NCBI GenBank assembly: GCA_964526225.1
Contig: CAZGLL010000004.1
Coordinates: 3,455-67,454 of the forward strand
Reading direction: 5' to 3'
Source: an uncultured Desulfurococcales archaeon
GTDB taxonomy: Archaea; Thermoproteota; Thermoprotei_A; EX4484-217-1
DNA length: 64,000 bases
In this document: positions 2,990 through 44,311 of the stretch, piece after piece
Layout: every line of letters begins with the position of its first letter
Position numbering within the stretch: the stretch's first letter is position 1
The notes under the pieces: model-generated
Databases searched by the model: none
The model's input: the letters and a program-made list of their open reading frames with translations, nothing else
What the model was told of the DNA's origin: nothing
Position numbers and translations under genes: made by a program

Positions 2990-3006
2990 TTCTCACACCC
3001 CACCTC

Positions 3007-4419
3007 CTATTTACCTAAAATTTCCTTTATTGATGAAACGAGCAAGTCAATATCACCTTTATCGTGCATTTCTGTTACGCAGAATAGTGCTGTTTCACCT
3101 AGTTCTGGGAACCATTTGCCAACGTATAGTCCGCCATGAATGTCTTTCTTTAGCAGTTCCTCATGGATTTTCTCGTACTTTACTCCTGCACCATCGAAGT
3201 TTACTGTGAATTCCTTGAAGAATTCACTCTTAAACACTGGCGCTTTTACTCCATCTATTTCATTTAACTTCTTAGCCGCGTAGTGTGAACGATACATTAT
3301 TAATTCTCCTAACTTCTTGAAGCCATGCTTACCTAGTAGGGCCATGTACACTGCTGCTCCTAATGCACATAGCATTTCGTTAGTACAGATGTTCGATGTT
3401 GCTCTTTCTCTTCTAATGTGTTGCTCTCTTGTTTGAAGTATCATTGCGAAACCTAGTTCTTTACCGTCTTCTGTTGTTGTTAATCCCATGATTCTACCTG
3501 GCATTTGCCTAACTATTCTCATATCCCATTTAGCAGCGAAAATGCCTAGATATGGTCCTCCGAAGTTCATGCCTAAACCTAATGGCTGGCCTTCTCCTAC
3601 AGCAATATCTGCACCTAGTTTACCTGGTGCTTCAAGAACGCCTAAGCTTATTGGGTCAACACCCATTATAAATAGTGCTCCGTAGTCATGAGCTATTTCA
3701 CCTATTGCTTTAGCATTCTCCTCTATGAATCCAAGGAATGATGGGTTCTCAATGTATACTGCTGCTACATCCTTAGGACTTAGTTTCTCCTTCAGATCCT
3801 CTAGATCCATTAGTCCTGTTTCCTTATCATATTTTACCTTCTCTATTTTGAGACCTTTAGGTTCAGTATAGGCTTTAACTACTGGTTCATGGTAGGGATT
3901 CATTGTTGAAGGTACTAAAACCCTAGTCTTGCCTTTCTTCTGAATACGCATTGCCATGAGAAATGATTCTGCAGCTGCTGACGCCCAATCATACATTGAT
4001 GAGTTAATTATTTCCATTTCTAAAAGATCAGCCATCATGCTCTGGTATTCAAAGAGAGCCTGCATAAGTCCCTGGGAAATTTCTGGCTGATATGGTGTAT
4101 ATGCCGTGTAGAATTCAGCACGTGACATAATGTATTTCACTACTGATGGAACATAGTGTGGCCATGAGCCACCTCCTAAAAATACTGGCGGGTTCATGAA
4201 TACCTTATTTTTATTGAAGAGTTTTTCAACGAACTTTCTAATTTCTATTTCGGACAGCGGTCTTCCAAGACCTATTTCGAGCTTATTCCAGTCGCCTTTA
4301 AACCTTGCTCCTTCAGGAATGTCTTTGAAAAGTTCTTCGACACTGCTAACACCAATAGTCTTCAGCATTTCCTTTTTAATATTCTCTGGAGAATTTGGTA
4401 GCCAAGGATGCACTACCAA
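3007..4419 (-). CDS. gcvPA: Glycine dehydrogenase (decarboxylating) subunit 1, glycine-cleavage P-protein N-terminal half
   Basis: 470 aa with typical GcvPA architecture (YTPYQPEISQG). The ORF-track start corresponds to a TTG codon (plus-strand caa at 4417-4419). Confidence 0.93.
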   Translation of the reverse strand: MVVHPWLPNSPENIKKEMLKTIGVSSVEELFKDIPEGARFKGDWNKLEIGLGRPLSEIEIRKFVEKLFNKNKVFMNPPVFLGGGSWPHYVPSVVKYIMSRAEFYTAYTPYQPEISQGLMQALFEYQSMMADLLEMEIINSSMYDWASAAAESFLMAMRIQKKGKTRVLVPSTMNPYHEPVVKAYTEPKGLKIEKVKYDKETGLMDLEDLKEKLSPKDVAAVYIENPSFLGFIEENAKAIGEIAHDYGALFIMGVDPISLGVLEAPGKLGADIAVGEGQPLGLGMNFGGPYLGIFAAKWDMRIVRQMPGRIMGLTTTEDGKELGFAMILQTREQHIRRERATSNICTNEMLCALGAAVYMALLGKHGFKKLGELIMYRSHYAAKKLNEIDGVKAPVFKSEFFKEFTVNFDGAGVKYEKIHEELLKKDIHGGLYVGKWFPELGETALFCVTEMHDKGDIDLLVSSIKEILGK

Positions 4420-4598
4420 AATATAACCCCAAATACATACTTTTTAGATCGGATTCTTAAAACGATTTCCATAATGAAACTAATAAAGGAATACAAAAAT
4501 GCAGTTGTTTATGGTGTTTTCTACGATTAAATATTTAGTTTCACAATAATGTTATTATAGGTTTATTTAAATTAGAAAAAACCTTATTATGATATTGG
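4420..4598. promoter_or_regulatory. Divergent promoter region between gcvPA (minus) and gcvT (plus)
   Basis: A 179-bp AT-rich spacer. TATA-like tttatttaaat (4563-4573) lies ~27 nt upstream of the gcvT ATG at 4599. TATA-like gttttaagaa (minus strand, 4455-4464) lies ~40 nt upstream of the gcvPA TTG. Confidence 0.35.
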
Positions 4599-5744
4599 TT
4601 GAGGCGGATTTCTATGGCCATAAAAACACATCTTTGGGAATTTCATGTGAAAGAACTTGGCGCTACTATGGGCGAATTCGGCGGCTGGGAAGTGCCAATG
4701 CTATATACTAGCTCTATGGAGGAACATAACATAGTTAGAACGGATGTCGGAATATTTGATGTAGCGCATATGGGAAGAGTGAAGCTAACAGGACCTGACG
4801 TACTTCCATTCCTTCAGAAACTTTACCCAAAGGATATGTCTAAAACTAAGGAGCACTGGATGTCAGGTCCAACATTAGCTCTTAACGAATATGCTAGAGT
4901 CAAAGATGACGAAATGGCATATAAGGTTTCCGATGAGGAATGGTTCATAATAGTTAATGCACCCTATAGAGAGAAGATGCTAAAATACTATGATGAAGTA
5001 ATTAAGAAATACGGGTTTAAAGTGCAAGTCGAAGATATAACGTTTAAGTATGCTATGATAGCTGTGCAAGGACCAAAAGTAGAAGAAGTTTTCGAAAAAA
5101 TCGGCGCCGGATGGGCAAATGATCTCCACACACTAGAGTTTAGAATGAATGAGGAAATTGCTGGGCAAAAGGTTTACCTAATAAGCAGAAGCGGTTGGAC
5201 AGGCGAAGATGGATTCGAAATTTGGGCTGAACCTAAGGCGATGGTTGAAATATATCGTGCACTACTAAAAGCTGGAGCTAAACCTGTAGGAATTATATGT
5301 AGAGATACTCTAAGAATAGAAATGGGCTTCGTTCTAGGAGGAGACGAATACGGTGAAGATCCGACAAAGTTCCCGCCAGCATGCTGTTTAAGATACGGCT
5401 TAGGCGCTATAGATTGGAATAAGAGAGGATACATAGGTGAAGAAGCTCTTAGGGCATGTAGACGTGAAGGTTGCAGATGGATTAGAGTAGGTATTAGGAT
5501 GAAGAAGAAACATGCTAGAGCAATACTTAGACACGGATATACTATTTATGTTGAAGATCAACCCGTAGGTTGGATAACAAGCGGAACATATTCACCGTAT
5601 CTTAGGAGATCAGTAGGGCAAGCATACATTGATTCAAGATATGCTCTCTTCGGGGAAACCGTTGAAGTTGAAATAAGAGGAAAGAGATACGAAGGAAGAA
5701 TACTTGACTTCCCACTCGTGCCGGGTAGACCTGTAGTTAAATAG
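4599..5744 (+). CDS. gcvT: Aminomethyltransferase, glycine-cleavage T protein
   Basis: 381 aa with a GcvT-type N-terminus (KTHLWEFHVKELGATMGEFGGWEVPMLY, DVAHMGRVKLTGPD). An alternative start is the ATG at 4614 (MAIKTHL). A TATA-like tttatttaaat lies about 30 nt upstream. Confidence 0.93.
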   Translation: MRRISMAIKTHLWEFHVKELGATMGEFGGWEVPMLYTSSMEEHNIVRTDVGIFDVAHMGRVKLTGPDVLPFLQKLYPKDMSKTKEHWMSGPTLALNEYARVKDDEMAYKVSDEEWFIIVNAPYREKMLKYYDEVIKKYGFKVQVEDITFKYAMIAVQGPKVEEVFEKIGAGWANDLHTLEFRMNEEIAGQKVYLISRSGWTGEDGFEIWAEPKAMVEIYRALLKAGAKPVGIICRDTLRIEMGFVLGGDEYGEDPTKFPPACCLRYGLGAIDWNKRGYIGEEALRACRREGCRWIRVGIRMKKKHARAILRHGYTIYVEDQPVGWITSGTYSPYLRRSVGQAYIDSRYALFGETVEVEIRGKRYEGRILDFPLVPGRPVVK

Positions 5745-5812
5745 TTTTAAGTTAAAAAGGTTTTTTTGAATCCTACTCTATAACAACACATGTCCCCCAT
5801 AGGGGTTAAACT

Positions 5813-6238
5813 ATGAGCACAATAGAATTCGAAGTTGGAGGTAAAAAATACCTAGTAAGAACGGATGTTAGATACACTAAAACAGATGAATGGGCTAAGA
5901 AGGAAAATGGCAAAGTGAGAGAAGGAATAACAGATTACGCACAGAAGGAGTTAAAGGACATTGTAGGAATCGAGCTTCCCGAGGTTGGTCAGGAAGTTAA
6001 GAAGGGAGAGGCTATAGGAACTCTTGAATCCGTTAAAGCAACAGCTGACTTTTACGCAGCAGTTTCCGGAAAGGTAGTAGAGGTTAATGAGAGACTTCTT
6101 GACGAACCTGAGCTTTTAAACAAGGACCCATACGGTGAGGGTTGGATAGTAGTTATTGAAATGAGTGATCCTAAGGAATTTGATGAACTATTAACACCCG
6201 AACAGTACATCGAAATGCGTAAGAAAGAAGCACACTAA
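5813..6238 (+). CDS. gcvH: Glycine-cleavage H protein (lipoyl carrier)
   Basis: 141 aa with the lipoyl-lysine motif ESVKA and the typical GcvH C-terminal region (DPYGEGWIVVIE). Confidence 0.95.
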   Translation: MSTIEFEVGGKKYLVRTDVRYTKTDEWAKKENGKVREGITDYAQKELKDIVGIELPEVGQEVKKGEAIGTLESVKATADFYAAVSGKVVEVNERLLDEPELLNKDPYGEGWIVVIEMSDPKEFDELLTPEQYIEMRKKEAH

Positions 6239-6265: not shown

Positions 6266-7387
6266 TTAAACAACCTTCATCATTACTGCATCATGATAGT
6301 CAACTATTACCTTAATATAGTTTCTAAGCATGTTGTCTACTTCTTCATCACCAGTATCGACCCTTAAAACATCAAGGTTTCTAATTTTCCTCCACGTAGC
6401 AATAACTACTATGTTTTTCTTTCCGCCAACCTTCTTTATAACATTAGGCGATATCTGCTGATTACCTCTTCCGAAAATAAATCCCTGGCCACCAATAGGT
6501 GTTATTATTATTTTAGCTTTAGGGTATTTTTCTAAAAGTTCAAGTAATCCTTTCTCGTCAAGATCTTTACCTACAAGTTTACCATTGTAAACAGCGTCTA
6601 CGCCTAAAAGCGTCTTTTCTATACCTAGCCTATCAGCTATAGCCTTGACTGTTGTTCCAGCACCTAAAATGTATAGTGTATCTGGCTCCATTTCTTCAAC
6701 TATTCTTTCAGCAATAGCTCTCCTATTATCCTCCTCATCTGCTATATCGGTGCTTGGCTGTTTGGATGTTTGAACAAGCCCTGCAACAATAGGTACTTTA
6801 AGATAGCCATAAAGCCTAGCTTTTAAAACGTTCTTACGGTATGCTTCTTCATCAATATCTAAGACCTCTTCCTCAACGATTCTTGTTTCACCGTTAGCAA
6901 ATGCCTTAACTATTTCAGCAGCTGCTTTAGGGTTAACTGCGAAAACAGCGCTAAACATTTTCACTCCGGAGGGTATTCCTAACACCGGTATTTTCATGTC
7001 GATAGCGTCCGCTACATCCCTTGCTGTACCGTCTCCTCCAACAAACACTAGTAAATCTACTTTTTCATCAACCATCTGTTTAGCTATTCTTTTGGTATCT
7101 TCAGCAGTTGTTTTTTCAGAATATAGTTCTCCAACAATTTTAGCTATTTTATCTCTATGTTTCGACTTCTTAGCTACATCTTCACCCATAACCTTAGGTG
7201 CAACGTAGAGCTCGAAATCTTCAAGATCTAGGCTATTGAGGAATTCTAAAGCTCTCCCAGGAGTTACAGGTTTAGCGCCTTTCTTTAATGCTATGTAGTA
7301 TGCTTCACCATCTGTTCCCTTAAGACCTACTCTACCGCCCATTCCGGCAATAGGGTTAATTATTAGTCCCAGCTTTAGTTTTCTCAA
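6266..7387 (-). CDS. ATP-NAD kinase family protein (PpnK-like, COG3199-type predicted polyphosphate/ATP NAD kinase)
   Basis: 373 aa. The N-terminal half has the NAD-kinase/diacylglycerol-kinase GGDGT-type motif (LLVFVGGDGTARDVADAIDMKIPVLGIPSGVK). The C-terminal half repeats a Rossmann-like segment. Confidence 0.5.
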   Translation of the reverse strand: MRKLKLGLIINPIAGMGGRVGLKGTDGEAYYIALKKGAKPVTPGRALEFLNSLDLEDFELYVAPKVMGEDVAKKSKHRDKIAKIVGELYSEKTTAEDTKRIAKQMVDEKVDLLVFVGGDGTARDVADAIDMKIPVLGIPSGVKMFSAVFAVNPKAAAEIVKAFANGETRIVEEEVLDIDEEAYRKNVLKARLYGYLKVPIVAGLVQTSKQPSTDIADEEDNRRAIAERIVEEMEPDTLYILGAGTTVKAIADRLGIEKTLLGVDAVYNGKLVGKDLDEKGLLELLEKYPKAKIIITPIGGQGFIFGRGNQQISPNVIKKVGGKKNIVVIATWRKIRNLDVLRVDTGDEEVDNMLRNYIKVIVDYHDAVMMKVV

Positions 7388-7479
7388 CTTATTTCCCAGC
7401 TTTTACGCTATAATCCTTAGTATAATATAAGCATTCCTTATATGTAGTAGCTAGTAAACCAGTAGATAAAGCGGTAAAA

Positions 7480-8418
7480 ATGATTGTTAAAAGGAAGTTT
7501 GGAAAATACGTTATCGTAGCCTTACCTGTGAAAACAAGTTATTGGAAGCCTAGAAAATTCTTTCTACCAGAGGTTTGTATGAAACTTAAAGGTAAGGTTT
7601 CTCATGGAGATATTATAGTATTTTCTGAAAAAGCTCTCTCAGTAGCATTAAACAACATTTATGATGAAGGCACTATTAAACCCAGATTTATCCACAAGGT
7701 AATGGCTTTCTTAATAATGAATATTCTTTGGGGTCATGTTTTAGGAGAAATAACTAAGCTAAAACATGAAACTCTAGAGTGGATAAGGAAAGCTCCAATA
7801 AATGAAATTTCTGTACACAAGGCTCTTTCACTCAAAATCGGAGGCTTGCTTCAAGCCCTCAAACCTTCGTCGGAAGCTGGAATAGATACGTCAAACGTCC
7901 CATACACTTACGTTTCTTTACCTCTAATGAAATGTTCTATTGTTGAAAAGCTTAGAAGAGCTTTAGAAAAGTGCTTGGAAAAGAAAGTTTCAGTATTGAT
8001 TGTGGATAGCGATAGAGTCTATGTCCATAGAAGACTTAATTTAGCTCTCGCTTCAAGGAAAACATGTCTTAAACATCTTAGAAACTACGGTGTACTTTCG
8101 TATGTTCTGGGTAGAACCTTTAGAAGCATGTTCTATCCTAGGGCAACCCCTGTAATGTATTCAGGAATGAAAATAGATTTAAGATTACTTCTTGAAATAG
8201 CTGAAATAGCTGATAGAGCAAGAGGCATTGGTGCCGGAAGAACAGTTTTTGAAATGGCACGTAGATTTGGCGTAAGAGTAAGCGAAGTTACGTGGGAAAT
8301 GTTATCCTCAATACCTCACTACCCTATTGTGATAGTCAAATTTATTCGGAAAGAGCCCCATAGAAGAAATAATACAGTAAAGTCTAGGTGCTTAGGGTAT
8401 GGTTCAAGCGAAATTTAG
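7480..8418 (+). CDS. CofE-like protein (F420-0:gamma-glutamyl ligase family homolog)
   Basis: 312 aa. The segment SEAGIDTSNVP resembles the CofE NAGID-x-SN active-site loop. It overlaps the PTPS gene by 20 nt, indicating an operon. The family assignment comes from motif recall only. Confidence 0.45.
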   Translation: MIVKRKFGKYVIVALPVKTSYWKPRKFFLPEVCMKLKGKVSHGDIIVFSEKALSVALNNIYDEGTIKPRFIHKVMAFLIMNILWGHVLGEITKLKHETLEWIRKAPINEISVHKALSLKIGGLLQALKPSSEAGIDTSNVPYTYVSLPLMKCSIVEKLRRALEKCLEKKVSVLIVDSDRVYVHRRLNLALASRKTCLKHLRNYGVLSYVLGRTFRSMFYPRATPVMYSGMKIDLRLLLEIAEIADRARGIGAGRTVFEMARRFGVRVSEVTWEMLSSIPHYPIVIVKFIRKEPHRRNNTVKSRCLGYGSSEI

Positions 8419-8824
8419 GGTAGGTGTTGAAAATTTAAGCTTTGATGCCGCACACTATACTAAAGGTGTCGAAGGAAAATGCATGAACCTTCACGGACAC
8501 ACCTTTAAAGTAAATGTTGAAGTTGAAGGGGAAGTGAATCCGGAAACAGGTTTTGTCATAGACTTTAGCATTCTCAAGAAAATCGTAAAAGAAGTTATTG
8601 AAGAATATGATCATAAAGTAATTGTTCCTAAGAAGGATGTTAACGAAACGTTTCTCAAAGGAAAATTTAAAGGCGAAGTTAAAATATTAGACTATCCCGA
8701 AGCATCTACTGAGTACATAGCCTTAGATATTGCCCGTAAAATACATGTGAAACTAAACATGCCTGTGAAAGTAAAGTTGTTTGAAGGACTAGGAAATTAC
8801 GTAATTGTTGAAATTAGAAAGTAA
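8399..8824 (+). CDS. 6-pyruvoyl-tetrahydropterin synthase family protein (QueD/PTPS-III type)
   Basis: 141 aa with the FDAAHYTKGVEGKCMNLHGHTFKV zinc-binding His/Cys pattern of the PTPS/QueD fold. Confidence 0.85.
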   Translation: MVQAKFRVGVENLSFDAAHYTKGVEGKCMNLHGHTFKVNVEVEGEVNPETGFVIDFSILKKIVKEVIEEYDHKVIVPKKDVNETFLKGKFKGEVKILDYPEASTEYIALDIARKIHVKLNMPVKVKLFEGLGNYVIVEIRK

Positions 8825-8843
8825 ATAGTGGAGTTGTATTTTA

Positions 8844-9731
8844 ATGAGAGATGTGCAAAATGAAAAACCCATATATCCAATATACATAAGCAGGGTTGGC
8901 GTAAGAAACATTAAGAGAAGAATAATTCTCGAAGCACCTAAAAGAAGGTTGCATTTCGACGCAATACTTGATGTTTACGTTGACCTTCCTGCGGAGAAAA
9001 GAGGAGTTCATATGTCAAGAAATATTGAAGCGTTCATTGAAGCTATAGATGCTGTTAGACTAAAGCCTTTACCTACAATGGAGGAAATCCTCGACACAAT
9101 ATGTGATATTCTCCTTAAGAAACATGAGTACGCTTCAAGAGCTGAAGTAATAGCTAGAACAACATACTTCTATACTGAAACATTCCTTGGAATACCAGCT
9201 GAGGAAGCAGCCGACGTAGAAATAAAGGTTGCGAAAACAAGAGAAGGAGATGTAACTTACGTCGTTAAGGTTGGACTTTCAGGCATGACTGTTTGCCCGT
9301 GTGCTCAAGAAACATATAAATCCGTAGAGAAAACAAAGCTTCCACATACTCCATCACATGTTCAAAGGGCTAAACTTTACTTATCGATTAAAACAAAGGG
9401 AGTTTTCGTTAGAATAGAGAAACTTATAGAGGCAGGTAAAGCTGCTTTCTCAGCACCTACGCTTAGTTTGCTAAAGAGAATAGATGAGTATAGGCTTGTC
9501 AAACATGCTTTCGAAAACCCACGTTTCGTTGAAGATGTTGCTAGAGCGGCTCTCTGTAATTTATACAGGATCGTTAATGGTAAGGTTCCTGAAGATTCAG
9601 AAATAGAAGTTGAAGTCATAAGTTACGAGAGCATACATCCCTATGATGCATATGCTTACGCTAAGTTTTCCCTTAAAGATTTAAAGAGAGAAATAGAGGA
9701 AGCTAAAAAGGTTTCAAAAACTCACACGTAA
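8844..9731 (+). CDS. mptA: GTP cyclohydrolase MptA (FolE2/type IB family)
   Basis: 295 aa with the FolE2/MptA signature RGVHMSR and the CPCAQE cysteine pair. Confidence 0.85.
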   Translation: MRDVQNEKPIYPIYISRVGVRNIKRRIILEAPKRRLHFDAILDVYVDLPAEKRGVHMSRNIEAFIEAIDAVRLKPLPTMEEILDTICDILLKKHEYASRAEVIARTTYFYTETFLGIPAEEAADVEIKVAKTREGDVTYVVKVGLSGMTVCPCAQETYKSVEKTKLPHTPSHVQRAKLYLSIKTKGVFVRIEKLIEAGKAAFSAPTLSLLKRIDEYRLVKHAFENPRFVEDVARAALCNLYRIVNGKVPEDSEIEVEVISYESIHPYDAYAYAKFSLKDLKREIEEAKKVSKTHT

Positions 9732-10708
9732 AGAATAGTAGCTTTAGCTCCAGAATTTCTAACTTCAGTTATGTATCCGAAAAAGTCAAAATCAAAAGCC
9801 TCTATAGCTTTTAAAAGTATGTTTCTAGCTCTTCTATAGCCCTTAACTAAACAGTATGCTGTCGGACCCCAGCTACTTTGCCCATATCCTTCACAGCCTA
9901 ATTTACTAAAAATGTTCACTACGGTTTCTGTTTCTTCACAACAAAATATTCCGCCTTGATATTTCGAAAAATACTTGCCAACAATTAGTTGAAGTTTAGT
10001 TAAAGCTTTACCAAATAACGTTATATCTTTCTCTACAATTGAGGGTATTATTTTCTCTAGGAGAATTTCGTAAAGTTCACGTTGCAAACTTCTAGGAGGT
10101 ATCGGTGGTTTGCTGAGAATACTTTCTTCTTCTATTTCTGAAAGACCTCTTCTCCTAATTGGAGTTATAACTAAAAACTTCCAGCTCTTTGGAATATTAG
10201 CTCTAAAAATTACAGCTGGAATATCGTTTGGAGTAGTAGGTTTTCTAAGAATCCCGTTTGTGGGCTTTTTCCTTCCCGAATCAACAATAAAACCTCCTCT
10301 TTCGAATGCTGCAATACCTATACCTGATACATCACCTCTACCTAAAATTGACGCTAAATCTCTTATTCCGATATTTAGTTTTAAGAGCTTCTTGAAAGCC
10401 AAAGCTACGGCTAAAAGTGTTTGCGTTGTTGACCCGAGTCCGACATGTTTTGGTAGAATTTTTTCGAATACTACAGAATATCCTTTAACACCTAGTTTTC
10501 TAGCAACATCACTAACTAGTTTTCCATAGTACTCACTATTTATGGGCGATTCTACATTTATTCCCTTTTGAAGTGAAGCTTTAAGAACAAGTTCTGGTTG
10601 CTTTATTGCTACACCTATGCTTCCATAGACTCTGTTTTCGCTTACAAAATTATAGAATCCTAAATGTAGCCTAGCTGAAGTTACAACCTCTACGATTGCT
10701 TTAGCCAT
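9722..10708 (-). CDS. GHMP-kinase-fold protein, beta-ribofuranosylaminobenzene 5'-phosphate (beta-RFAP) synthase-like
   Basis: 328 aa with a GHMP-kinase glycine-rich loop (GRGDVSGIGIAAFERGGFIVDSG). The size and the pterin-operon context fit the archaeal RFAP-synthase family. Family-level inference only. Confidence 0.55.
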   Translation of the reverse strand: MAKAIVEVVTSARLHLGFYNFVSENRVYGSIGVAIKQPELVLKASLQKGINVESPINSEYYGKLVSDVARKLGVKGYSVVFEKILPKHVGLGSTTQTLLAVALAFKKLLKLNIGIRDLASILGRGDVSGIGIAAFERGGFIVDSGRKKPTNGILRKPTTPNDIPAVIFRANIPKSWKFLVITPIRRRGLSEIEEESILSKPPIPPRSLQRELYEILLEKIIPSIVEKDITLFGKALTKLQLIVGKYFSKYQGGIFCCEETETVVNIFSKLGCEGYGQSSWGPTAYCLVKGYRRARNILLKAIEAFDFDFFGYITEVRNSGAKATILYV

Positions 10709-10725
10709 GCTACTCCAACCCTATT

Positions 10726-12306
10726 TTAAAAAGGTATTTTTCTTTTGCGAAAGAGCGTTCTTTCTTGGACATAGTTTTTACCTATTATCAAGGCCTCCTC
10801 AGCTTTAGAAAGCTCTATTCCAAGATAGAATGCGTGTGAAAGCGTTGAGACAAGATTTCTCCTTAAAATTTCATCTCTAATTTCTCTGGCTGTTTTCCCT
10901 CTAATCAATATTTTCCCCTTTCTCCCTATATATAGGGCTTCGATAACTTCATCTTCATGGTTGACTCTAATTTTAAACACACCTAAGGGATCTAGTTCAT
11001 ATTCTTTTTCGCTCTTCTGCGCTTCAACAATTTCCGCTCCTTCAACATCTAGAGGGGTTTCAATCCTCCTTTTATCTTTAAGTATCAACAGATCTATTCC
11101 AAGATCTTTTGGCGGAGAGTTTTTAATCCAAGCTAAAGAGGCCATACGTGCTGCAATGGACGCTTCATAGGTTGATCCTTGTGCTTTACAGCTTTTTTCG
11201 ACAACAAGCACTAAACTTACACCTATTTCTGCAGCTAACATTACAAGTAATGCGTTTGAACCTACAGTATCTGCATCTAAAAGCTCTACAACATTACCTA
11301 TACCAATAAGCATAGGTATTTTCGGATATTTCTTCTTAAAGATATAGTACGCTAGAAGGGATTGAAATGAGCTTTTAGAGTTTATAGGGTCAAGTATCGG
11401 ATCAGCAATTATCTTTTCAACATTATGTTGTAATGCTTTACCGATATTTTCTTCTAAGAGCTTAAATTTTTCCTCAGCAGTTTTAGGTTGTACTGGGAGT
11501 TTTGAATCATAAGCTATAATTACGACAGGGATTTCAGTGACATATTTAGCTACTTTTCCAATATTACTTGCTTCAAGGCTCATAACCATGTCTGCTCCAG
11601 CTTCAACAGCAGCTATTATTTCGCTGGGAATTATCGAATCTACGGCTATAGGCACTGAAAGTTCCTTTTTAAGAAATCTAATGGTTTCTCTAACCTTTTC
11701 AGCATGTGATATTCCTGCTTCAAAACCTATGCTTAAAATGTCTGCTCCTTCATTAACGAGCTTCCCTGCTTTCTTAAGAAGTTTATCTCGTGATAATAAG
11801 TGAGCTTCAGTTATTTCGGCAATAACCCTTATAGGCGGTGGTGTTGCAGGAACAATAACATTACCTACGATTAAATGTGGTTTTTCAACAATAGATTTTT
11901 CCAATTCCTCTAAGAGCTTCCTATTTGAATTCAAAATTTCTTCTTCAATAAGTTCGTCAGCGGGTTTATCGGGTGATAGCTTGTTTAAGTCCTTCAACGA
12001 AAATATTGCTGGTATATCTGTTGCTTGAAGTGTGCCTTTAACGGCCTTTATACCTACTGTTTCCTCTATTACTTTCGCTGAACCTGTAGAAGCTCCAGGA
12101 ATAAGTATCAAATCGTAATCTCCCTTTTTAACACCAACCTTCTTCAAATAGTTAGCTATAAGCTCTGTTGTCGCTAATGCTGCAACCGCTATAGGTAATT
12201 CCAGAACATCTACTTGGTAAGGTCCTGCTACCGATTCAATAGCCTTTCTAACAACTGGTGCTGCAAGTTTACCTGTAACTACTAAGATTTTCAAAGCAGG
12301 GCACAC
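10726..12306 (-). CDS. Archaeal dihydropteroate synthase-related protein (central pterin-binding DHPS-like domain)
   Basis: 526 aa. The central region (ADILSIGFEAG...VPIAVDSIIPSEIIAAVEAGADMVMSLEAS) resembles the N-terminal half of DHPS (pterin-binding TIM barrel). This is the ~500-aa archaeal-only DHPS-related architecture. Confidence 0.6.
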   Translation of the reverse strand: MCPALKILVVTGKLAAPVVRKAIESVAGPYQVDVLELPIAVAALATTELIANYLKKVGVKKGDYDLILIPGASTGSAKVIEETVGIKAVKGTLQATDIPAIFSLKDLNKLSPDKPADELIEEEILNSNRKLLEELEKSIVEKPHLIVGNVIVPATPPPIRVIAEITEAHLLSRDKLLKKAGKLVNEGADILSIGFEAGISHAEKVRETIRFLKKELSVPIAVDSIIPSEIIAAVEAGADMVMSLEASNIGKVAKYVTEIPVVIIAYDSKLPVQPKTAEEKFKLLEENIGKALQHNVEKIIADPILDPINSKSSFQSLLAYYIFKKKYPKIPMLIGIGNVVELLDADTVGSNALLVMLAAEIGVSLVLVVEKSCKAQGSTYEASIAARMASLAWIKNSPPKDLGIDLLILKDKRRIETPLDVEGAEIVEAQKSEKEYELDPLGVFKIRVNHEDEVIEALYIGRKGKILIRGKTAREIRDEILRRNLVSTLSHAFYLGIELSKAEEALIIGKNYVQERTLFRKRKIPF

Positions 12307-12356
12307 TCACGATATATCCTATGACTATCGAAAACTACTAGTTTATTTTATTTTCC

Positions 12357-13142
12357 CTACTGAATAATATTTTCTACTTCGAAATAGTCTAGATGTTTAA
12401 CATTAAAATTTTTAATACGGCTCTTACCTAGTGTAAATACCTTATTTACAGCTACTTTCGCAATGAGCTCCTTAGCTATTTGGAACTTCTTCTTCTTGGT
12501 CTCCCACGCTTTTATGTTATGTTTAAGCCAGGGTTTAGAGTATTTTCCAACGATTTCGCCAAAATCCATTGCTACTAAGAATATTTTTGATGCACTAAAT
12601 TTTAACGCTAAAAATAGAGCTCTATCGCCATCAGTGAATCCGCCATAGTTTTCAACGCACCCTTCAGGTTCTAGCTGAGTAGTGTAAATACTGTAGGGAA
12701 AAAGTTTACCTAAATACTTCCTTAACGCTGAAATATTATCCCCATGAGCATGAATGACCATTACTGCCCCATTAAATGCTGCTTTAAATAACGCTTCGAA
12801 ATCTCCATCTAAGTCTGTAACTACAATGTCAGGATATATTCCGTAATCTATTAGAGCTTTTGTTGCGCCGTCAACGCTTACTATTGTTATTTTAGATTTT
12901 CTTTTAAAGAGTATTTCTCTTAAACCTTCAATATCGTCCTCTAGTGTTGGTGAAGCGCCGAAAATAAATATGTTTCTTCGATGGATTTTTTGAAAGATTT
13001 TTCTAAAATTGGTTCTTGTAAATGAACAATTTATTTTCGCTGCTACAAAGCTTCTCGCTCTTAGATCGTCTAACGTATTTACATTAATTATTCTTTTAAC
13101 TACTAAGTAGTAATCGAAAATAGCTTCTCTGTTTAAAAGCAT
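12357..13142 (-). CDS. MptE-like 6-hydroxymethyl-7,8-dihydropterin pyrophosphokinase (DUF115 family)
   Basis: 261 aa with the DUF115/MptE-type motifs IFIFGASPTLEDD and DIVVTDLDGD. It is co-directional with the DHPS-related and RFAP-synthase-like genes. Confidence 0.55.
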   Translation of the reverse strand: MLLNREAIFDYYLVVKRIINVNTLDDLRARSFVAAKINCSFTRTNFRKIFQKIHRRNIFIFGASPTLEDDIEGLREILFKRKSKITIVSVDGATKALIDYGIYPDIVVTDLDGDFEALFKAAFNGAVMVIHAHGDNISALRKYLGKLFPYSIYTTQLEPEGCVENYGGFTDGDRALFLALKFSASKIFLVAMDFGEIVGKYSKPWLKHNIKAWETKKKKFQIAKELIAKVAVNKVFTLGKSRIKNFNVKHLDYFEVENIIQ

Positions 13143-14673: not shown

Positions 14674-15843
14674 GTGAAAGCGGAAATGGAAGGAATAGCT
14701 GATCTACCACTACATGAAGGACACGTACCTCTATGGCTACTTAGGCTTATGAGAAAACTAGCTAAGGCTATAGTTGAAATATTCATTTTAGAGTATGGTC
14801 CGGACAGACTTGTTGAAAGGCTGGCTGATCCATTATGGTTCCAAGCTTTCAATAATGTAATAGGTATGGACTGGGATAGTAGTGGATCAACAACAGTTAC
14901 CTTAGCCATGCTTAGATCTGTTCTTAACAATGGAGAATATGGTGTTTTAGTTTTAGGAGGTAAAGGCTCTAAAGCTAAGTCGGTGCCTGAAGAAATAAAC
15001 TATGCTGTAGAGAAGCTTAGCTTACCTAGTAGGCTAAGCGACAAGCTTAAGAAAGCCTCTAGATTAGTTGCTAAGGTTGATTCTGCTCTTGTTCAAGACG
15101 GCTACTCAATATATATTCATTCCCTCATAGTTTCTGAGAATGCTAAGTGGGCCATTGTACAGCAGGGAATGAATGTAAACTTGAAAATGGCGAGAAGATA
15201 TCATTGGCTTTCAGATAATTTAGAAAGCTATGTTAGAGAACCGCATAGCGGAATTCTCACGTTGAATATGGAAAAAGCTGTGCTAAACCTTGTGGATAGG
15301 AATGTTGAAGGTGCTCGAAAAACCATTGTTGATTTAGCTAAGGAAAGCCCGTCAGCAATAGTTAACATGTATAGGGATGCATTAAATGCGTTAAGAAAAC
15401 AAACCACACTTTACCCGGAAGCCTCAATAGTACGCGTAGATCCCGTTAAGAAACAGATATACTATGCTCCAATAACTTCAATAAACACTTTAGCTGAAAG
15501 AATAGCAAGAATTAAGGAGGTTTCACCTAGAAACCTAGAAGAGCTCTTATTAGTAAGAGGAGTTGGTGCTTCAACCATTAAAGCTCTCGCATTAATCTCA
15601 GATCTAATATTCAATGAACCACCCTCATATCGTGATCCAGCCAACTACATTTACGATCCATTTAGATACACTTTCGCCGTTGGGGGAAAGGATGGAGTAC
15701 CGTACCCGGTAAATAGGAAGGTTATGGAGGAAACCATTGTTACACTTGAAAACATAATTAAGGAGGCAAAAATCAGTCCTAAAGATAAAAGAAGAGCTTT
15801 AAATAGACTAAAATCGTTGAGGGCAATGGTTCATGAAAAATGA
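14674..15843 (+). CDS. Hypothetical protein with a helix-hairpin-helix segment (DUF763-like)
   Basis: 389 aa with an HhH-like motif LLLVRGVGASTIKALALISD. The family assignment is tentative. Confidence 0.35.
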   Translation: MKAEMEGIADLPLHEGHVPLWLLRLMRKLAKAIVEIFILEYGPDRLVERLADPLWFQAFNNVIGMDWDSSGSTTVTLAMLRSVLNNGEYGVLVLGGKGSKAKSVPEEINYAVEKLSLPSRLSDKLKKASRLVAKVDSALVQDGYSIYIHSLIVSENAKWAIVQQGMNVNLKMARRYHWLSDNLESYVREPHSGILTLNMEKAVLNLVDRNVEGARKTIVDLAKESPSAIVNMYRDALNALRKQTTLYPEASIVRVDPVKKQIYYAPITSINTLAERIARIKEVSPRNLEELLLVRGVGASTIKALALISDLIFNEPPSYRDPANYIYDPFRYTFAVGGKDGVPYPVNRKVMEETIVTLENIIKEAKISPKDKRRALNRLKSLRAMVHEK

Positions 15844-16486
15844 TATTTTTAGAACCCTTTTAGATCTAGGCTTCTCCGAAGACACTTTCTCAGAGGTAAT
15901 TGCTGTAACAAGGTTTGAAAATATGTGGAACTGTTCCCCACTTGGTGTAAAACTTAATTCAGAGAACAAAACATTGCACTTCTATGTTTATGAAGGAGCA
16001 AGAATACTTAGCTTCCTTAGTAAACGAAACCTATTTACGCTAAATGTTGTTAACGAGTATTCGGCTTTTTTAAATTGCATTTTCAAAAGAAATATTGAAA
16101 ATGAAATACGAAAAATAACCAATACATTGGGATATTTGAGAATAGCTGATGCTTATATTGTATGTGAAAATAGCTTACCTATAAAGGTTAGTAAAGATAA
16201 GTACTTGGTCAATGCGTTTGCTAAAGAAATAGTTATTCTTAGAAACAAGCCTAGAGCATTTAATAGGGTATTGCCAGCAGTAATCGAAGCATTAATATGC
16301 TACACAAAGATTAAACCTTATAGTAAAGTGTATGGTTTCTCATCAGTATTGGAGCTTCTGGAAAGAATAAGGTACTGTAAAGATATAGTGGATCATGCGA
16401 CATCGAATTCTGAAGCTAAAAGAGCGATTGATTTCATTTATGAGGAAGCAGTTAAGCTTGCAAATAACCTAAGGGAGGATAGATAA
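15833..16486 (+). CDS. Hypothetical protein
   Basis: 217 aa. It overlaps the previous gene by 11 nt and ends 3 nt before the CitG-like gene, indicating an operon. No motif was recognised. Confidence 0.35.
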   Translation: MKNDIFRTLLDLGFSEDTFSEVIAVTRFENMWNCSPLGVKLNSENKTLHFYVYEGARILSFLSKRNLFTLNVVNEYSAFLNCIFKRNIENEIRKITNTLGYLRIADAYIVCENSLPIKVSKDKYLVNAFAKEIVILRNKPRAFNRVLPAVIEALICYTKIKPYSKVYGFSSVLELLERIRYCKDIVDHATSNSEAKRAIDFIYEEAVKLANNLREDR

Positions 16487-16489
16487 TAC

Positions 16490-17437
16490 ATGTACATGAG
16501 CACCATAGAGCGGCTATTAACATCTTCAGTAGCCGCTCTAATACTTGAAGTTGTAGCTACACCTAAACCTGGGAACGTACATAGGTACCATAGTTATGAA
16601 GATATGGGATTAGAGCATTTCATAGTTTCATCTTCGGCATCAATATGGTGTTTTCGCAAGCTCCTAATAGCCACATTAAATAGTGGCTTACGTAGGGAAA
16701 CTTATGTTCCAGGTATTGGTGAAACAATACTGTGTTGTGTGAGGAACTCTAAAAAGTGGCATAGAGGAGGAAATGTAAACCTAGGTACTTCAACAATACT
16801 TTCAATATTATTACCCTCAATACTACTTACTGAAATAATTCATAACAAAGTGATCATGGAGGACCTTTCATTTACAGCTAAAAGTGTTGTTAAAAACACC
16901 ACTGTTGATGATGCTGTAAAATACTATGAAGCAATAAGAACTGCTTCTCCAAGATATTTAGGTAGAGTAAATAATGCTCCAATACCTGACGTTTACGATG
17001 AAAATTTTGAACATAAAATAAGAAGTAATAAAGTCACATTATACGATGTTTTAAAGTATGCATCATCCGAAGATATAGTTTCTAGAACTTGCGTTAACGG
17101 GCTAAAGGAAATCATCGAAGGCTATAACTATTTAAAAACGTTCTTCAGAAGGTATGGTGATATAAATAATGCAATAGTTCTTACCTATCTTAAACTTCTA
17201 AGTAAGTATGATGATTTCATAGTTTTAAGAAAGCATGGAAGAAAAGTAAGCTCATATGTGAAGAATAGAGCTTCCGAAATCGTTAAGTTAATAGAGGAGG
17301 ACTTCGATAGAGGCTTTAGTGCACTTAAACGGTTCGATAATGAACTTTTCATTAGAAAAATTAATCCGGGAAGCATCGCTGATATAACAGCGGTATCAAT
17401 AACTTTGGCATTATTCATGAATGAAGTAAAGGTGTAA
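16490..17437 (+). CDS. CitG/MdcB-family protein (triphosphoribosyl-dephospho-CoA synthase homolog)
   Basis: 315 aa. The N-terminal ATPKPGNVHR matches the CitG (L)TPKPGLVD signature. Confidence 0.6.
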   Translation: MYMSTIERLLTSSVAALILEVVATPKPGNVHRYHSYEDMGLEHFIVSSSASIWCFRKLLIATLNSGLRRETYVPGIGETILCCVRNSKKWHRGGNVNLGTSTILSILLPSILLTEIIHNKVIMEDLSFTAKSVVKNTTVDDAVKYYEAIRTASPRYLGRVNNAPIPDVYDENFEHKIRSNKVTLYDVLKYASSEDIVSRTCVNGLKEIIEGYNYLKTFFRRYGDINNAIVLTYLKLLSKYDDFIVLRKHGRKVSSYVKNRASEIVKLIEEDFDRGFSALKRFDNELFIRKINPGSIADITAVSITLALFMNEVKV

Positions 17438-17454
17438 GGTGGGGTTTAGATTAA

Positions 17455-18537
17455 TTGAATATTAGAGCTATAACGTTAATGGTAGGAGAGATATATGGAA
17501 AAGATATTCATGAAGCAGAAAGCATAGTGGAAAACGTTGTTTCGAAATTTATAGTGCTATTGGATGAGTTAAAGAAAAAATTTAAAGTATGGACAATAAG
17601 GCTTTCTTTACCATATGTAAACCCCAATATAAAGGATGTTGAAAAGTACGCTAGCGTATTTGAGAATATTGCGGAAAAGTATTCAATAGATTTTGTTTCA
17701 TCACTTCACTTTAGATCAAATGATAGTAGAATATGGAGCATACCAGGTGCTTTACTTAATAATGAGAAAACCTTTGGAAGCATTGTATTGAAAGGATACG
17801 ATGATTTATTACCTATTGCTAAAATATTTGAAAACCTTAACGAAGATAATGGATATAAATTAGTGGCTATTTGGGGAGAAACGTTAACACCATACTTTCC
17901 AGCGTCAAGAGCTCCAATAGGTTCAAACGGGATAACATATACACCATTTATTGTTGAAGAATATTTAGCATTTAAAGATGTTGAACATGCTGAAGAAAAA
18001 ATTGCCACTAAACTCTTCCAAGTAAACTCCCAAATTGAAAATTTAGCGGAAAAATACAGTCTTAAATTCTTTGGTGTAGACGTTTCACCCAGTCCATGGA
18101 TGGATATAAGTGTTGCTAAAGTTATAGAACGTCTTGGAGGAGTACGTTTTGGAGAATACGGAACTCTATATGGGGTGTGGTTGTTAAGCAAGTCTATCAG
18201 CAATATTACGTTAAAATTACAGAGTAAAACAACAGGTTTCAATGAGATAATGCTTCCGGTTGCTGAAGATAATGTGTTAAAGGAGAGAGCTATTGAGGGA
18301 ACATATAGTGTAAAAGATTTAGTTCAATACTCTTTCGCATGCGTTTATGGTTTGGACATGGTTCCTATAGCTAAACCTGTAGGATACCGAAAAATAATGA
18401 GAATACTTTACGATTTAAAAGTTGCAAGCGAAGTTAAAAAGAAACCTGTAGGTTTTAGAATAATCCCAGTAAACGCAGAACCTGGCTCAATTATTGACCT
18501 TGGATTTTTCGGCCATACTCCAGTGTTCAAACTTTAG
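17455..18537 (+). CDS. Hypothetical protein, last gene of the CitG-like operon
   Basis: 360 aa with coding-like composition. The 178-aa antisense ORF at 17706..18242 is Ser/Leu-rich and is rejected. Confidence 0.4.
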   Translation: MNIRAITLMVGEIYGKDIHEAESIVENVVSKFIVLLDELKKKFKVWTIRLSLPYVNPNIKDVEKYASVFENIAEKYSIDFVSSLHFRSNDSRIWSIPGALLNNEKTFGSIVLKGYDDLLPIAKIFENLNEDNGYKLVAIWGETLTPYFPASRAPIGSNGITYTPFIVEEYLAFKDVEHAEEKIATKLFQVNSQIENLAEKYSLKFFGVDVSPSPWMDISVAKVIERLGGVRFGEYGTLYGVWLLSKSISNITLKLQSKTTGFNEIMLPVAEDNVLKERAIEGTYSVKDLVQYSFACVYGLDMVPIAKPVGYRKIMRILYDLKVASEVKKKPVGFRIIPVNAEPGSIIDLGFFGHTPVFKL

Positions 18538-18586: not shown

Positions 18587-19744
18587 GTGAAGTTTTTGAC
18601 AAAACTGCTTCAACTCTACCCTAAATACGGTATAAGAATTGTTAAAGGCTATATGCAATACGTTTGGGATGATAAGGGAAATAAGTACATAGACCTTCAT
18701 ACGGGATATGGAACAGCATTTCTAGGTCATTCAAACCCAAAAATAGTGGAAAGAATTTATCGGCAAATGAAAGAAATTATGGTTGCTTCATACTCCTTCG
18801 ACGTTAACTCAAGAGATGAAAGCATTAAAGCTCTCTCTAAAATTCTCCCTAAAAAACTAGAATACGTTTTCTTCCAAAATAGTGGAACTGAAGCTGTTGA
18901 AGCTGCATTGAAATTTTCTAGGAAACATACTAAAAGGAAAAAGTTCATAGCCTTCACAAACTCCTTCCACGGAAGAACTATGGGCTCTCTTTCATTAACG
19001 TGGAATCCTAAATATAGGAAACCCTTCTTTGCCGAATCAGAGGATGTTGTTTTTCTTAGGTTTAATTGTGTTTTTGATGTTGAGAGGTTTGTTGATGAGG
19101 GGGTGGCTGCTGTTGTTGTTGAGGTTGTTCAGGGTGAAGGGGGATTAAACGTTGCCACACCCGAATTCCTAAAGGCAATAAGGGAAAAATGCGGCGAAGT
19201 AGGCTGCGTAACAATATTCGACGAAGTACAAACAGGATTCGGAAGAACAGGAAAAACATGGGCACACCAACACTACAACATAGAACCGGACATTCTAGTT
19301 GCTGGTAAGGCTATTGGCGGAGGCTTTCCTGTAAGTTTAGTAGTTACTTCTAGTGAAATTGGAGAATCTTTGGAGTTAGGGGAACATGGAACAACCTATG
19401 GTGGTAATCCTGTTGCGTGCGCAGCTGTTTCAGCGTCAATAGATGTTTTATTAGAAGATGATGTTGCAGATAAGGCTCGTGCAGCTGGTGAGTACTTCAG
19501 AAAGAAACTTAGTGAGATAGTTTCAAGAGAAAAACTGAAAGGTTTAGGATTAATGATTGGAATAGATATTGGCGAGAACCCTGAGTTCGCGATTAAATCA
19601 TTACTTAATGAGAAAATAATTTCGTTAAAAGCAGGAGAAACAGTGCTAAGATTTCTACCTCCCTACATGATAACCAAGGAGGATATAGAGCATATAGTTG
19701 AGGCATTAAATAAGGTGTTGAGGAAGGAAAGCTATTCATCATAG
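18587..19744 (+). CDS. Class-III aminotransferase, acetylornithine / LysW-gamma-L-lysine aminotransferase
   Basis: 385 aa. It has the acetylornithine-aminotransferase N-terminal pattern (YIDLHTGYGTAFLGHSNPKIV) and the PLP-lysine region DEVQTGFGRTG. Confidence 0.9.
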   Translation: MKFLTKLLQLYPKYGIRIVKGYMQYVWDDKGNKYIDLHTGYGTAFLGHSNPKIVERIYRQMKEIMVASYSFDVNSRDESIKALSKILPKKLEYVFFQNSGTEAVEAALKFSRKHTKRKKFIAFTNSFHGRTMGSLSLTWNPKYRKPFFAESEDVVFLRFNCVFDVERFVDEGVAAVVVEVVQGEGGLNVATPEFLKAIREKCGEVGCVTIFDEVQTGFGRTGKTWAHQHYNIEPDILVAGKAIGGGFPVSLVVTSSEIGESLELGEHGTTYGGNPVACAAVSASIDVLLEDDVADKARAAGEYFRKKLSEIVSREKLKGLGLMIGIDIGENPEFAIKSLLNEKIISLKAGETVLRFLPPYMITKEDIEHIVEALNKVLRKESYSS

Positions 19745-25518: not shown

Positions 25519-25523
25519 CTAAA

Positions 25524-31694: not shown

Positions 31695-31696
31695 CT

Positions 31697-31954: not shown

Positions 31955-31960
31955 GCATTA

Positions 31961-33665: not shown

Positions 33666-33678
33666 GTATTGGTCCTTT

Positions 33679-43147: not shown

Positions 43148-43153
43148 AACGCT

Positions 43154-44299: not shown

Positions 44300-44311
44300 G
44301 GTGTAAAGCTT

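Follow-up and report, generated by a model that had tools for sequence, protein, structure and literature searches.

The early tetrahydromethanopterin (H4MPT) pathway of Methanocaldococcus jannaschii, which involves MptA (MJ0775), MptB (MJ0837), MptD, MptE and RFAP synthase (MJ1427/AF2089/MTH0830), draws on a GTP-derived pterin and on an arylamine derived from phosphoribosyl pyrophosphate (PRPP), and its genes lie scattered in methanogens. The same two branches are represented, in this case by clustered genes, at positions 7480–13142 of the DNA analysed here (the window), a stretch of 64,000 nucleotides on contig CAZGLL010000004.1 of an uncultured Desulfurococcales archaeon (GenBank assembly GCA_964526225.1). 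This region very probably constitutes a biosynthetic gene cluster for the pterin–arylamine core of a methanopterin-type ('modified folate') one-carbon carrier. The early methanopterin/6-HMDP pathway and its enzymes MptA, MptE and RFAP synthase are already established, and it is likewise known that COG0720 paralogues stand in for the aldolase in some Archaea and that methanopterin-like modified folates occur across thermophilic Archaea (PMC5041015, PMC3334880, PMC3261824, PMC6787355). Modified folates that lack the carbonyl of p-aminobenzoate (pABA) have been described as common across Archaea (PMC3334880), and Sulfolobus carries an arylamine-pentitol folate analogue according to work cited in PMC3261824. 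The cluster is of a known kind, its core being present in complete published genomes, and it now appears in a new uncultured lineage, leaving the known picture unchanged. It bears on which enzyme makes the pterin–arylamine bond in Archaea and on whether TACK archaea glutamylate a methanopterin-like cofactor.

Comparison with described systems reveals both shared and divergent elements. Relative to M. jannaschii, the MptA of the window passes the equivalog model, its MptE is close to a solved 6-hydroxymethyl-7,8-dihydropterin pyrophosphokinase (HPPK) and the GHMP phosphate loop is common to both, whereas the window lacks MptB and MptD, holds a PTPS gene within the cluster and encodes a non-group-1 RFAPS-like protein without D19 (PMC6787355). 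In Staphylothermus hellenicus DSM 12710, a cultured member of the Desulfurococcales (CP002051.1, ~1.328–1.336 Mb), genes for DUF447, MptE-like, MptA, PTPS, RFAPS-like and dihydropteroate synthase (DHPS)-like proteins form one block, with 42–61% identity to the window proteins (27% for DUF447). Unlike the window, this block contains genes for a DmrX-like flavoprotein/ferredoxin and a DUF1464 (ASKHA-fold) protein; neither the CofE-like nor the NAD-kinase-like gene is present in it, and no glycine cleavage genes adjoin it. The H4MPT/methylofuran islands of methylotrophs (mptG, orf5/7/9/17/19-22, orfY) follow a common principle, with RFAP synthase and tail ligases placed beside one-carbon-transfer enzymes, but differ from the window in gene content, several of their orfs serving methylofuran (MfnB/E/F, MyfA/B) and not pterin (PMC3615186, PMC8141765). 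The methylotroph orf21 encodes MfnE and not a CitG-like protein (PMC8141765).

The cluster comprises six open reading frames arranged in two convergent, tightly packed gene strings, exactly where an earlier reading of the letters alone (the sequence-only reading) had drawn two operons. The plus strand encodes the CofE-fold paralogue (7480–8418, 312 aa), the PTPS/QueD-fold (COG0720) enzyme (8399–8824, 141 aa) and a GTP cyclohydrolase MptA of the GCYH-IB type (8844–9731, 295 aa), while the minus strand encodes the RFAPS-like GHMP-fold protein (9722–10708, 328 aa), the archaeal DHPS-like protein of family TIGR00284 (10726–12306, 526 aa) and an MptE-type HPPK (12357–13142, 261 aa). Spacing within the strings is of operon density, with one 20-nt overlap and otherwise gaps of 17–50 nt, and the two strings overlap by 10 nt where they converge (9722–9731). 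The G+C content is ~37% across the region, and no tRNA, Rfam family or notable tandem repeat was found in the window. Families were assigned by Pfam and NCBIfam hidden Markov model (HMM) scans with curated cut-offs, and the genomic view comprises the window together with fetched loci of relatives (labelled L001 and so on), against which the window proteins were compared by tblastn. Five HMM calls at or above their cut-offs support the earlier idea of a methanopterin-like pterin cofactor cluster, and the two points on which that idea was exposed, a sugar-kinase assignment of the GHMP-fold protein and a missing pterin-binding domain in the 526-aa protein, both turned out in its favour. Among genomes, the DHPS-like protein finds its closest counterparts in 'Thermoprotei archaeon AUK086' (90–93% amino acid identity) and in uncultured Desulfurococcales metagenome-assembled genomes (MAGs; 82%), and identical proteins occur only on MAG and metagenome contigs. 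Given these relatives, the host is a crenarchaeon that belongs to Desulfurococcales-related Thermoprotei and not to Sulfolobales.

MptA and MptE are the most directly identified members of the cluster. The cyclohydrolase passes the MptA equivalog TIGR00294 (250.8 bits, cut-off 220) and remains below the cut-offs of the rival models FolE2 (144 against 215) and GCYH-IV (129.6 against 468), with PF02649 scoring 211.6 bits. Moreover, the GCYH-IB motifs G-x-HMSR, CPC, H-x-QR and ESIH all align with those of N. gonorrhoeae FolE2 (3d2o). The product of 8844–9731 is assigned on this basis as MptA, predicted to catalyse the first step from GTP. The MptE-like protein matches PF01973 at 108.8 bits (cut-off 34.6) and, over residues 48–228, the PDB entry 8sd5, named '6-hydroxymethyl-7,8-dihydropterin pyrophosphokinase', with a phmmer E value of 7e-40. 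Both enzyme names proposed in the sequence-only reading are thereby retained.

The PTPS-fold enzyme carries PF01242 (93 bits, cut-off 22), in agreement with the earlier PTPS/QueD-fold call, and its signature C28-MNL-H32-G-H34 places Cys28 on the catalytic Cys of E. coli QueD. Published signatures are CxxxHGH for PTPS-I/QueD, CxxxxxHGH for PTPS-II, ExxHGH for PTPS-III and CExxHGH for hybrids (PMC5041015). The E-x-x-HGH of PTPS-III is absent from the window protein, in which Met occupies position -3, compared with W-E-D-V-HGH in P. horikoshii PH0634, a folate-type PTPS of an archaeon. The protein belongs to a discrete clade of 134–150-aa members that score at least 120 bits inside the clade and at most 71 bits outside it, and a hybrid C-E motif is found in 8 of its 75 members. 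Orthologues from Sulfolobales read D-S-Q-[LI]-HGH, with neither Cys nor Glu, in the same gene context; the PTPS of the Acidianus cluster is syntenic with and 48% identical to that of the window. Phillips et al. (2012) reportedly described, in species of Sulfolobus, PTPS-III enzymes whose signature sequences deviate from the usual one. At every locus examined, the clade gene is accompanied by DHPS-like, RFAPS-like or MptE-like genes. Across this clade the active-site signature varies (C, CE or D) within an unchanging genomic context.

PTPS-III/VI enzymes take the place of FolB in the folate and methanopterin pathways of some Archaea, and certain archaea make methanopterin with PTPS-III-type enzymes that may use the monophosphate as substrate (PMC5041015). 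The window PTPS resembles enzymes of this kind, such as Pyrococcus PF1278/PH0634 (PMC5041015) and the variant-signature PTPS-III of Sulfolobus, in being a COG0720 protein whose gene is clustered with pterin-cofactor genes, and no MptD or FolB lies near it; its C-M-N-L-HGH contrasts with the E-x-x-HGH of PH0634. Because of this precedent and the conserved synteny, the PTPS probably stands in for MptD and most likely cleaves the side chain of dihydroneopterin(-phosphate) to release 6-hydroxymethyl-7,8-dihydropterin. The sequence-only reading had placed MptB and MptD outside the cluster, and indeed no homologue of either lies within the window; its assumption of a separate MptD, however, probably gives way to the PTPS. 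No second COG0720 gene was found in the window. The HD-domain protein at 39996–40667, considered as an MptB candidate, is best matched by a PRK10119-type phosphohydrolase (101 against a cut-off of 286) and reaches only 27 bits against 172 on TIGR00295.

The arylamine branch is represented by the RFAPS-like protein, which exceeds the family model TIGR00144 (140.5 bits, cut-off 113.5) while scoring only 17 bits with the pantoate kinase model and 16 bits with the shikimate kinase model, so that it falls on the RFAP synthase side of the sugar-kinase check. Its sole PDB relatives are ForT/'beta-RFAP synthase' chains. The GHMP phosphate loop P86...G90-L-G92-S93-T-T95-Q96 is present, and in an alignment of 13 clade members P86, V89, G90, G92, S93, T95 and Q96 are invariant, as is a G-rich SGIG...GGF segment, while the N-terminal motif of the clade reads R-x-H-x-G-F...Y-G-x-x-G. 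Group 1 RFAP synthases are those of methanogens, Archaeoglobus and Sulfolobus; in MTH0830, D19 and R26 matter for activity and pABA binding, and its pABA-binding motif, taken from a primer printed in the same paper, is D-LNGERG-R-LDGGVG (PMC6787355). The window protein is classified from its sequence as a non-group-1 member of the RFAP synthase family, for which the C-ribosylation of an aromatic acid with PRPP can reasonably be proposed. In M. jannaschii a phenol precursor gives rise to the arylamine of methanopterin, and PurB carries out the final conversion, of RFSA-P to RFA-P, according to studies cited in PMC3261824.

Only 17 nt separate the RFAPS-like gene from that of the DHPS-like protein. 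This 526-aa protein scores 388.4 bits on TIGR00284 (cut-off 256.65), 52.7 on Pterin_bind PF00809 (cut-off 25.5), 64.4 on PF14251 (cut-off 29.6) and 33.5 on PF20123, and is built from a DUF6513 domain, a central Pterin_bind TIM barrel and a C-terminal PterinBD-DUF4346 domain. These scores vindicate the earlier description of a DHPS-related protein with a pterin-binding domain, and local similarity to a solved DHPS includes the conserved Asp of the xDT motif. Since its gene adjoins the RFAPS-like gene, the protein is predicted to be the condensing enzyme for 6-HMDP and RFAP. The cluster thus offers a compact gene set in which a condensing-enzyme candidate is packed against an RFAP-synthase homologue. 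A literature search on MJ0301/MJ0107, made to trace the family of the biochemically assigned archaeal 'DHPS', gave no match.

Family membership, domain content, fold and conserved synteny are observed; in the route drawn from them, the role of the PTPS, the late steps and all substrates and products are predicted. MptA would convert GTP to dihydroneopterin phosphate; the product of characterised MptA is the 2',3'-cyclic phosphate. The PTPS would remove the side chain to give 6-hydroxymethyl-7,8-dihydropterin, doing the job of the aldolase MptD/FolB, and MptE would pyrophosphorylate this intermediate to 6-HMDP. In parallel, the RFAPS-family enzyme would join PRPP to pABA or 4-hydroxybenzoate with decarboxylation, generating the arylamine-ribosyl moiety; the phenol route of M. 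jannaschii starts from 4-hydroxybenzoate. The TIGR00284 protein would then condense 6-HMDP with the arylamine-ribosyl phosphate. Later changes to the side chain would fall to the CofE-fold paralogue, and probably to the neighbouring DUF447, CitG-like and NAD-kinase-like proteins, and the finished cofactor would serve the glycine cleavage system next to the cluster.

Conservation of the locus extends well beyond the immediate lineage. The whole block is kept, from gcvT to the aminotransferase gene at 18587–19744, in L001, L003 together with L006, and L007; it is also syntenic in L013 and, at ~60% identity, in L021, L025 and L026, the overall range being 60–93% amino acid identity. The core genes (DHPS-like, RFAPS-like, PTPS, MptA, MptE-like and DUF447) are kept in a Thermofilaceae MAG (L002) and in S. 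hellenicus (L014), and DHPS-like, RFAPS-like and PTPS genes are seen in a Bathyarchaeota MAG (L004), whose locus ends just past PTPS. Because the core is kept across these lineages at 36–66% identity, its clustering is not due to chance. In Acidianus (L016), MptE-like, PTPS and DHPS-like genes occur together. This Acidianus locus has no MptA or RFAPS-like gene adjacent, and between or beside its three pathway genes, at 8454–10809, lie five small open reading frames (65–165 aa) with no Pfam match.

Several observations weigh against the proposed route. The window lacks an MptB-like cyclic phosphodiesterase, NCBIfam grades TIGR00284 only as 'hypoth_equivalog', its reaction being hypothetical, and we know of no cofactor chemistry for the host lineage. 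The CofE-like gene is missing from the Staphylothermus, Thermofilaceae and Bathyarchaeota clusters and hence does not belong to the core pathway. The RFAPS-like protein fails the equivalog NF040726 (171.2 bits, cut-off 328) over a full-length alignment (7–322 of 328 aa), and its N-terminal segment reads ...GFYNFVSEN-R26-VYGSIG, in which D19 of the MTH0830 motif is replaced; Arg stands at the R26 position in the window protein, compared with I, K, V or T in clade relatives. The earlier beta-RFAP-synthase-like call consequently holds at the level of the family model and not at that of the equivalog, and, because the cut-off is failed and D19 is absent, we infer the substrate of this protein instead of reading it from its family. 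Finally, the PTPS keeps the QueD-type C-x3-HGH, whose Cys is present in 72 of the 75 clade members, without the PTPS-III Glu, and could be QueD.

A QueD identity for the PTPS is the alternative that survives best, although it appears unlikely. The gene product would then supply 6-carboxytetrahydropterin for archaeosine/preQ0, its gene would sit beside MptA because both draw on a GTP-derived neopterin, and the aldolase would be encoded elsewhere. In addition to the Cys shared with E. coli QueD, its score on the QueD equivalog TIGR03367 falls barely short of the cut-off (87.7 against 89.25), and automatic annotation names its relatives '6-carboxytetrahydropterin synthase'. Against this, the other five clade members tested reach 64–87 bits on the same model, so that all six lie below the cut-off, whereas three shorter outgroup QueD-like proteins pass it at 98–107 bits. 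Moreover, Sulfolobales orthologues replace the Cys with Asp, a change that QueD should not tolerate, and genes for DHPS-like, RFAPS-like or MptE-like proteins accompany the PTPS gene also at loci where it does not directly adjoin MptA (L004 and Acidianus L016). Neither queC, queE nor tgtA was found near clade genes in the window or at the ~10 loci carrying clade members. Retention of the Cys in nearly the whole clade does make an additional QueD activity plausible, and a dual function, QueD plus side-chain cleavage, serving both archaeosine and pterin synthesis, is quite possible. The radical-SAM gene at 27601–28365, examined as a QueE candidate, scores 33 bits against 206.

Whereas the core genes find counterparts in described pathways, the first gene of the plus-strand string encodes a divergent member of the CofE fold. 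The protein matches PF01996 (F420_ligase) over residues 36–178 only (41.4 bits, cut-off 25) and fails the CofE equivalogs TIGR01916 (25.1 against 180.65) and NF009809 (20.1 against 274). An AlphaFold 2 model, built from a 28-sequence alignment with a mean predicted local distance difference test score of 91, retrieves only CofE chains as significant Foldseek matches in the PDB (2phn, 2g9i and 7uld; E 4e-9, TM-score 0.46/0.58, 14–15% identity, probability 1.0). In a profile search, GIDxSN and D176-S-D178 align to the CofE segments GIDASN and D-T-N, so that GIDxSN and the acidic D-[ST]-x motif are common to both proteins, whereas the window protein carries ~60 extra residues, including a helical insertion at ~65–127. 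On contig L018, a CofE-like paralogue (45.7 bits) and a genuine CofE (271.8 bits) are encoded 3 kb apart, and L032 and L080 likewise have canonical CofE homologues in their flanks. As both forms are encoded on L018, the window protein represents a paralogue and not CofE itself. The CofE-like ligase of the sequence-only reading therefore keeps its fold but is neither a CofE orthologue nor an early-pathway enzyme; its absence from the three distant clusters suggests a lineage-specific tailoring step instead. The family is small, a search of 1.84 billion sequences yielding 357 representatives at a threshold of E<=1e-3 and 46 when this is tightened to E<=1e-30, and its named matches come from Thermoprotei, Nezhaarchaeales and Bathyarchaeia, TACK archaea being the only group among those named.

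To place this family in its genomic setting, 80 metagenomic loci with CofE-like members were fetched and the 43 with at least 6 kb of flanking DNA were counted. At least one neighbour related to a one-carbon carrier is present at 36 of these 43 loci, many of which are related, so that they do not amount to 36 independent events. Four arrangements, from different lineages, can be distinguished. The window type, with glycine cleavage, NAD-kinase-like, CofE-like, PTPS and MptA genes, accounts for two of the 43 loci and also occurs in L021. The second, found at five of the 43 loci and additionally in L022 and L023, combines an MptN-like ATP-grasp gene, CofE-like, FTR, MTD and Fwd, the ATP-grasp neighbours scoring 253–269 bits as MptN compared with 78–89 as CofF. 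The third joins ThyX, CofE-like and an ADP-forming acyl-CoA synthetase, with ThyX within 300 bp in 15 of the 43, and the fourth has subunits of carbon monoxide dehydrogenase/acetyl-CoA synthase 2–6 kb upstream (7/43). The pterin carrier is the common denominator of the four, and the family thus tracks one-carbon-carrier enzymes in at least four gene arrangements. At L019, L030, L035 and ~15 other Bathyarchaeia loci, the ThyX/CofE-like/acyl-CoA synthetase genes are followed by inositol-1-phosphate synthase ~2.4 kb and gcvH ~3.6 kb downstream.

The position of the CofE-like gene near one-carbon-carrier enzymes at 36 of 43 loci, together with the coexistence with genuine CofE, suggests a pterin tail ligase, and the CofE-like protein is predicted to be a nucleotide-dependent amide-bond ligase that probably acts on the side chain of a pterin one-carbon carrier. 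More tentatively, and with somewhat less than even confidence, the family may constitute a TACK-archaeal group of ligases that adds a glutamyl or other amino-acid tail to a methanopterin-like carrier in concert with MptN-like ATP-grasp ligases, as CofE and CofF do on F420. A precedent for a CofE paralogue acting on a pterin cofactor is provided by Chlamydia CT611/FolC2, a COG1478 paralogue that complements E. coli folC (PMC1971073). At E<=0.01, the CT611-type model TIGR04132 does not pick up the window protein, while it gives 79 bits with the genuine CofE of L018. If the proposal is correct, the family would be an archaeal counterpart of FolC2 that arose independently, and archaea with this ligase would carry a pterin cofactor variant not yet described.

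That the CofE-like paralogue instead glutamylates a methanofuran-type cofactor seems quite improbable. Such a target would account for its position between the MptN-like ligase and the FTR/Fwd genes in the second arrangement, and MyfB, a homologue of MptN, attaches polyglutamate to methylofuran (PMC8141765). Neither Fwd nor FTR, however, occurs within the window, where the CofE-like gene is co-transcribed with pterin-branch genes, and the commonest context of the family, directly adjacent in 15 of the 43 loci, is ThyX. FTR and Fwd use methanofuran, whereas ThyX uses a pterin and not methanofuran. As a target of the paralogue, F420 is a weaker rival than methanofuran. It is very improbable that the protein is a true, if divergent, F420-0:gamma-glutamyl ligase with no part in the pterin pathway: membership of PF01996, the CofE fold and the proximity of some homologues to F420-linked genes (MTD, FrhB-like) would fit, but family members reach only 25–46 bits against the CofE cut-off of 181, and genuine or canonical CofE is encoded close to them on L018, L032 and L080. 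In addition, the window gene shares 20 nt with the PTPS gene, no F420 gene is present anywhere in the 64 kb, and the ATP-grasp neighbours are MptN-like and not CofF-like. A classical folate-type cofactor is very improbable as well. In that case pABA would be the partner to which 6-HMDP is joined by the DHPS-like protein, glutamate would be attached by the CofE-like protein in the manner of Chlamydia FolC2/CT611, and the GHMP-fold protein would have some other role. The CT611 precedent, the RFAPS-like score below the equivalog cut-off with loss of the mutagenesis-defined D19, and the view that haloarchaeal RFAPS homologues (~30% identity) are not RFAP synthases (PMC8305020) speak for this reading. 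Against it stand an RFAPS-like gene that closely adjoins the DHPS-like gene in all lineages, also where a CofE-like gene is absent, a CofE-like protein that misses TIGR04132 where genuine CofE matches weakly, and the lack of any FolP-type DHPS or FolC in view.

The methanopterin-type cluster sits in a functional neighbourhood larger than the interval 7480–13142 marked in the sequence-only reading, since glycine cleavage, NAD-kinase-like, DUF447 and CitG-like genes lie alongside. Upstream, a complete glycine cleavage system (1418–6238) is encoded by gcvPB (1418–2989, minus strand; GcvPB 674 bits), gcvPA (3007–4419, minus; GcvPA 597 bits), gcvT (4599–5744, plus; GcvT 350 bits) and gcvH (5813–6238, plus; GcvH 164 bits), all above their cut-offs, and this synteny is kept in L007, L021, L025 and L026. 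GcvT requires a pterin carrier, and the system is a likely consumer of the pterin one-carbon carrier. Between the glycine cleavage genes and the cluster, a NAD-kinase-fold protein (6266–7387, minus; PF01513 and PF20143) scores below 32 bits on all NAD kinase equivalogs, whose cut-offs are ~300, and no PDB relative of it was found. Its gene divergently adjoins the CofE-like gene, an arrangement kept in L001, L003, L007, L013, L021, L025 and L026, and the product is possibly an accessory kinase.

Downstream of the cluster, a TrkH gene is followed by a packed plus-strand string (14674–18537) encoding a DUF763 protein (14674–15843; PF05559, 408 bits), a DUF447 protein with an FMN-binding split-barrel-like fold (15833–16486; PF04289 and PF20766), a CitG-like protein of the triphosphoribosyl-dephospho-CoA-synthase family (16490–17437; PF01874, 198 bits) and a DUF711 (UPF0210-like) protein (17455–18537; PF05167, 120 bits over the C-terminal half of the profile only), with an 11-nt overlap between the first two genes. 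DUF447 is a probable accessory gene of the pterin pathway; it lies directly beside the MptE-like gene in Thermofilaceae L002 and Staphylothermus L014, and its PDB relatives, 2iml and 2ptf, are both uncharacterised. The CitG-like protein remains far below the cut-offs of all CitG/MdcB equivalogs and matches PDB 3h9p at 3e-24; in L020 and L022, 0.2–6 kb separate such genes from the CofE-like one, and a role as a late-step ribosyl-transfer enzyme is speculative. As DUF763 and DUF711 are syntenic in close relatives only, their link to the pathway is unproven.

The additional genes of the related clusters were also considered. A DUF1464 gene (~385 aa) lies inside the pterin cluster both in Staphylothermus L014, within the span 7100–9017 that also holds the DmrX-like gene, and in Thermofilaceae L002 (5420–6577), and is a candidate pathway gene. 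The DmrX-like protein of S. hellenicus is a homologue of dihydromethanopterin reductase, TIGR02700 being its best match at 183.6 bits, below the cut-off of 251. No homologue of either was found in the 64-kb window, and the product of the FMN-reductase-like gene at 34635–35387, considered as a DmrX-type reductase, has no similarity to the Staphylothermus DmrX-like protein. Likewise, the RimK-type gene at 57959–58960, considered as MptN, passes the LysX equivalog (327.8 against 275.6) and scores 143 against 350 as MptN. Together with a LysJ/ArgD-type aminotransferase (18587–19744) and an ornithine/aspartate carbamoyltransferase (58969–59904), this lysX belongs to scattered genes of a LysW-type lysine/arginine pathway.

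Elsewhere in the window, a gene set at 42656–48982 and 48979–54442 resembles a membrane-bound [NiFe] hydrogenase or Mrp-type complex, with genes for a 4Fe-4S protein, Proton_antipo_M, Complex1_30kDa, a CCG-domain protein, Complex1_49kDa/NiFeSe, NADHdh, Fer4 and Oxidored_q6, followed by the maturation genes hypD, hypE-like and hypF (842 bits). Mannosyl-3-phosphoglycerate synthase, a compatible-solute gene typical of hyperthermophiles, is encoded at 41355–42542 (516 bits). A TrpB-like (TrpB2) pyridoxal-phosphate enzyme at 36100–37647 (711 bits) has, in the open reading frame as listed, ~70–80 extra N-terminal residues, and its GTG start may be called too far upstream. At 30075–34638, genes for a transglutaminase-like protein (539 aa), two proteins without a family match (368 and 211 aa) and a MoxR-type AAA ATPase resemble a MoxR-associated module. 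Additional single genes encode an AmmeMemoRadiSam-system radical SAM enzyme right at its cut-off (56062–57129; 220.3 against 220), a HAD-IIB, phosphoglycolate-phosphatase-like enzyme under its cut-off (29348–30046; 99 bits against 123) and a ParB_N-domain protein weakly similar to ADP-dependent serine kinase SerK/SbnI (19732–20442; 64 bits against 380). Finally, at 23299–26726, a 739-aa protein with several weak immunoglobulin-like-domain matches is encoded between an ABC ATPase and a MacB/FtsX-type permease, and may be a surface or substrate-binding component of this transporter.

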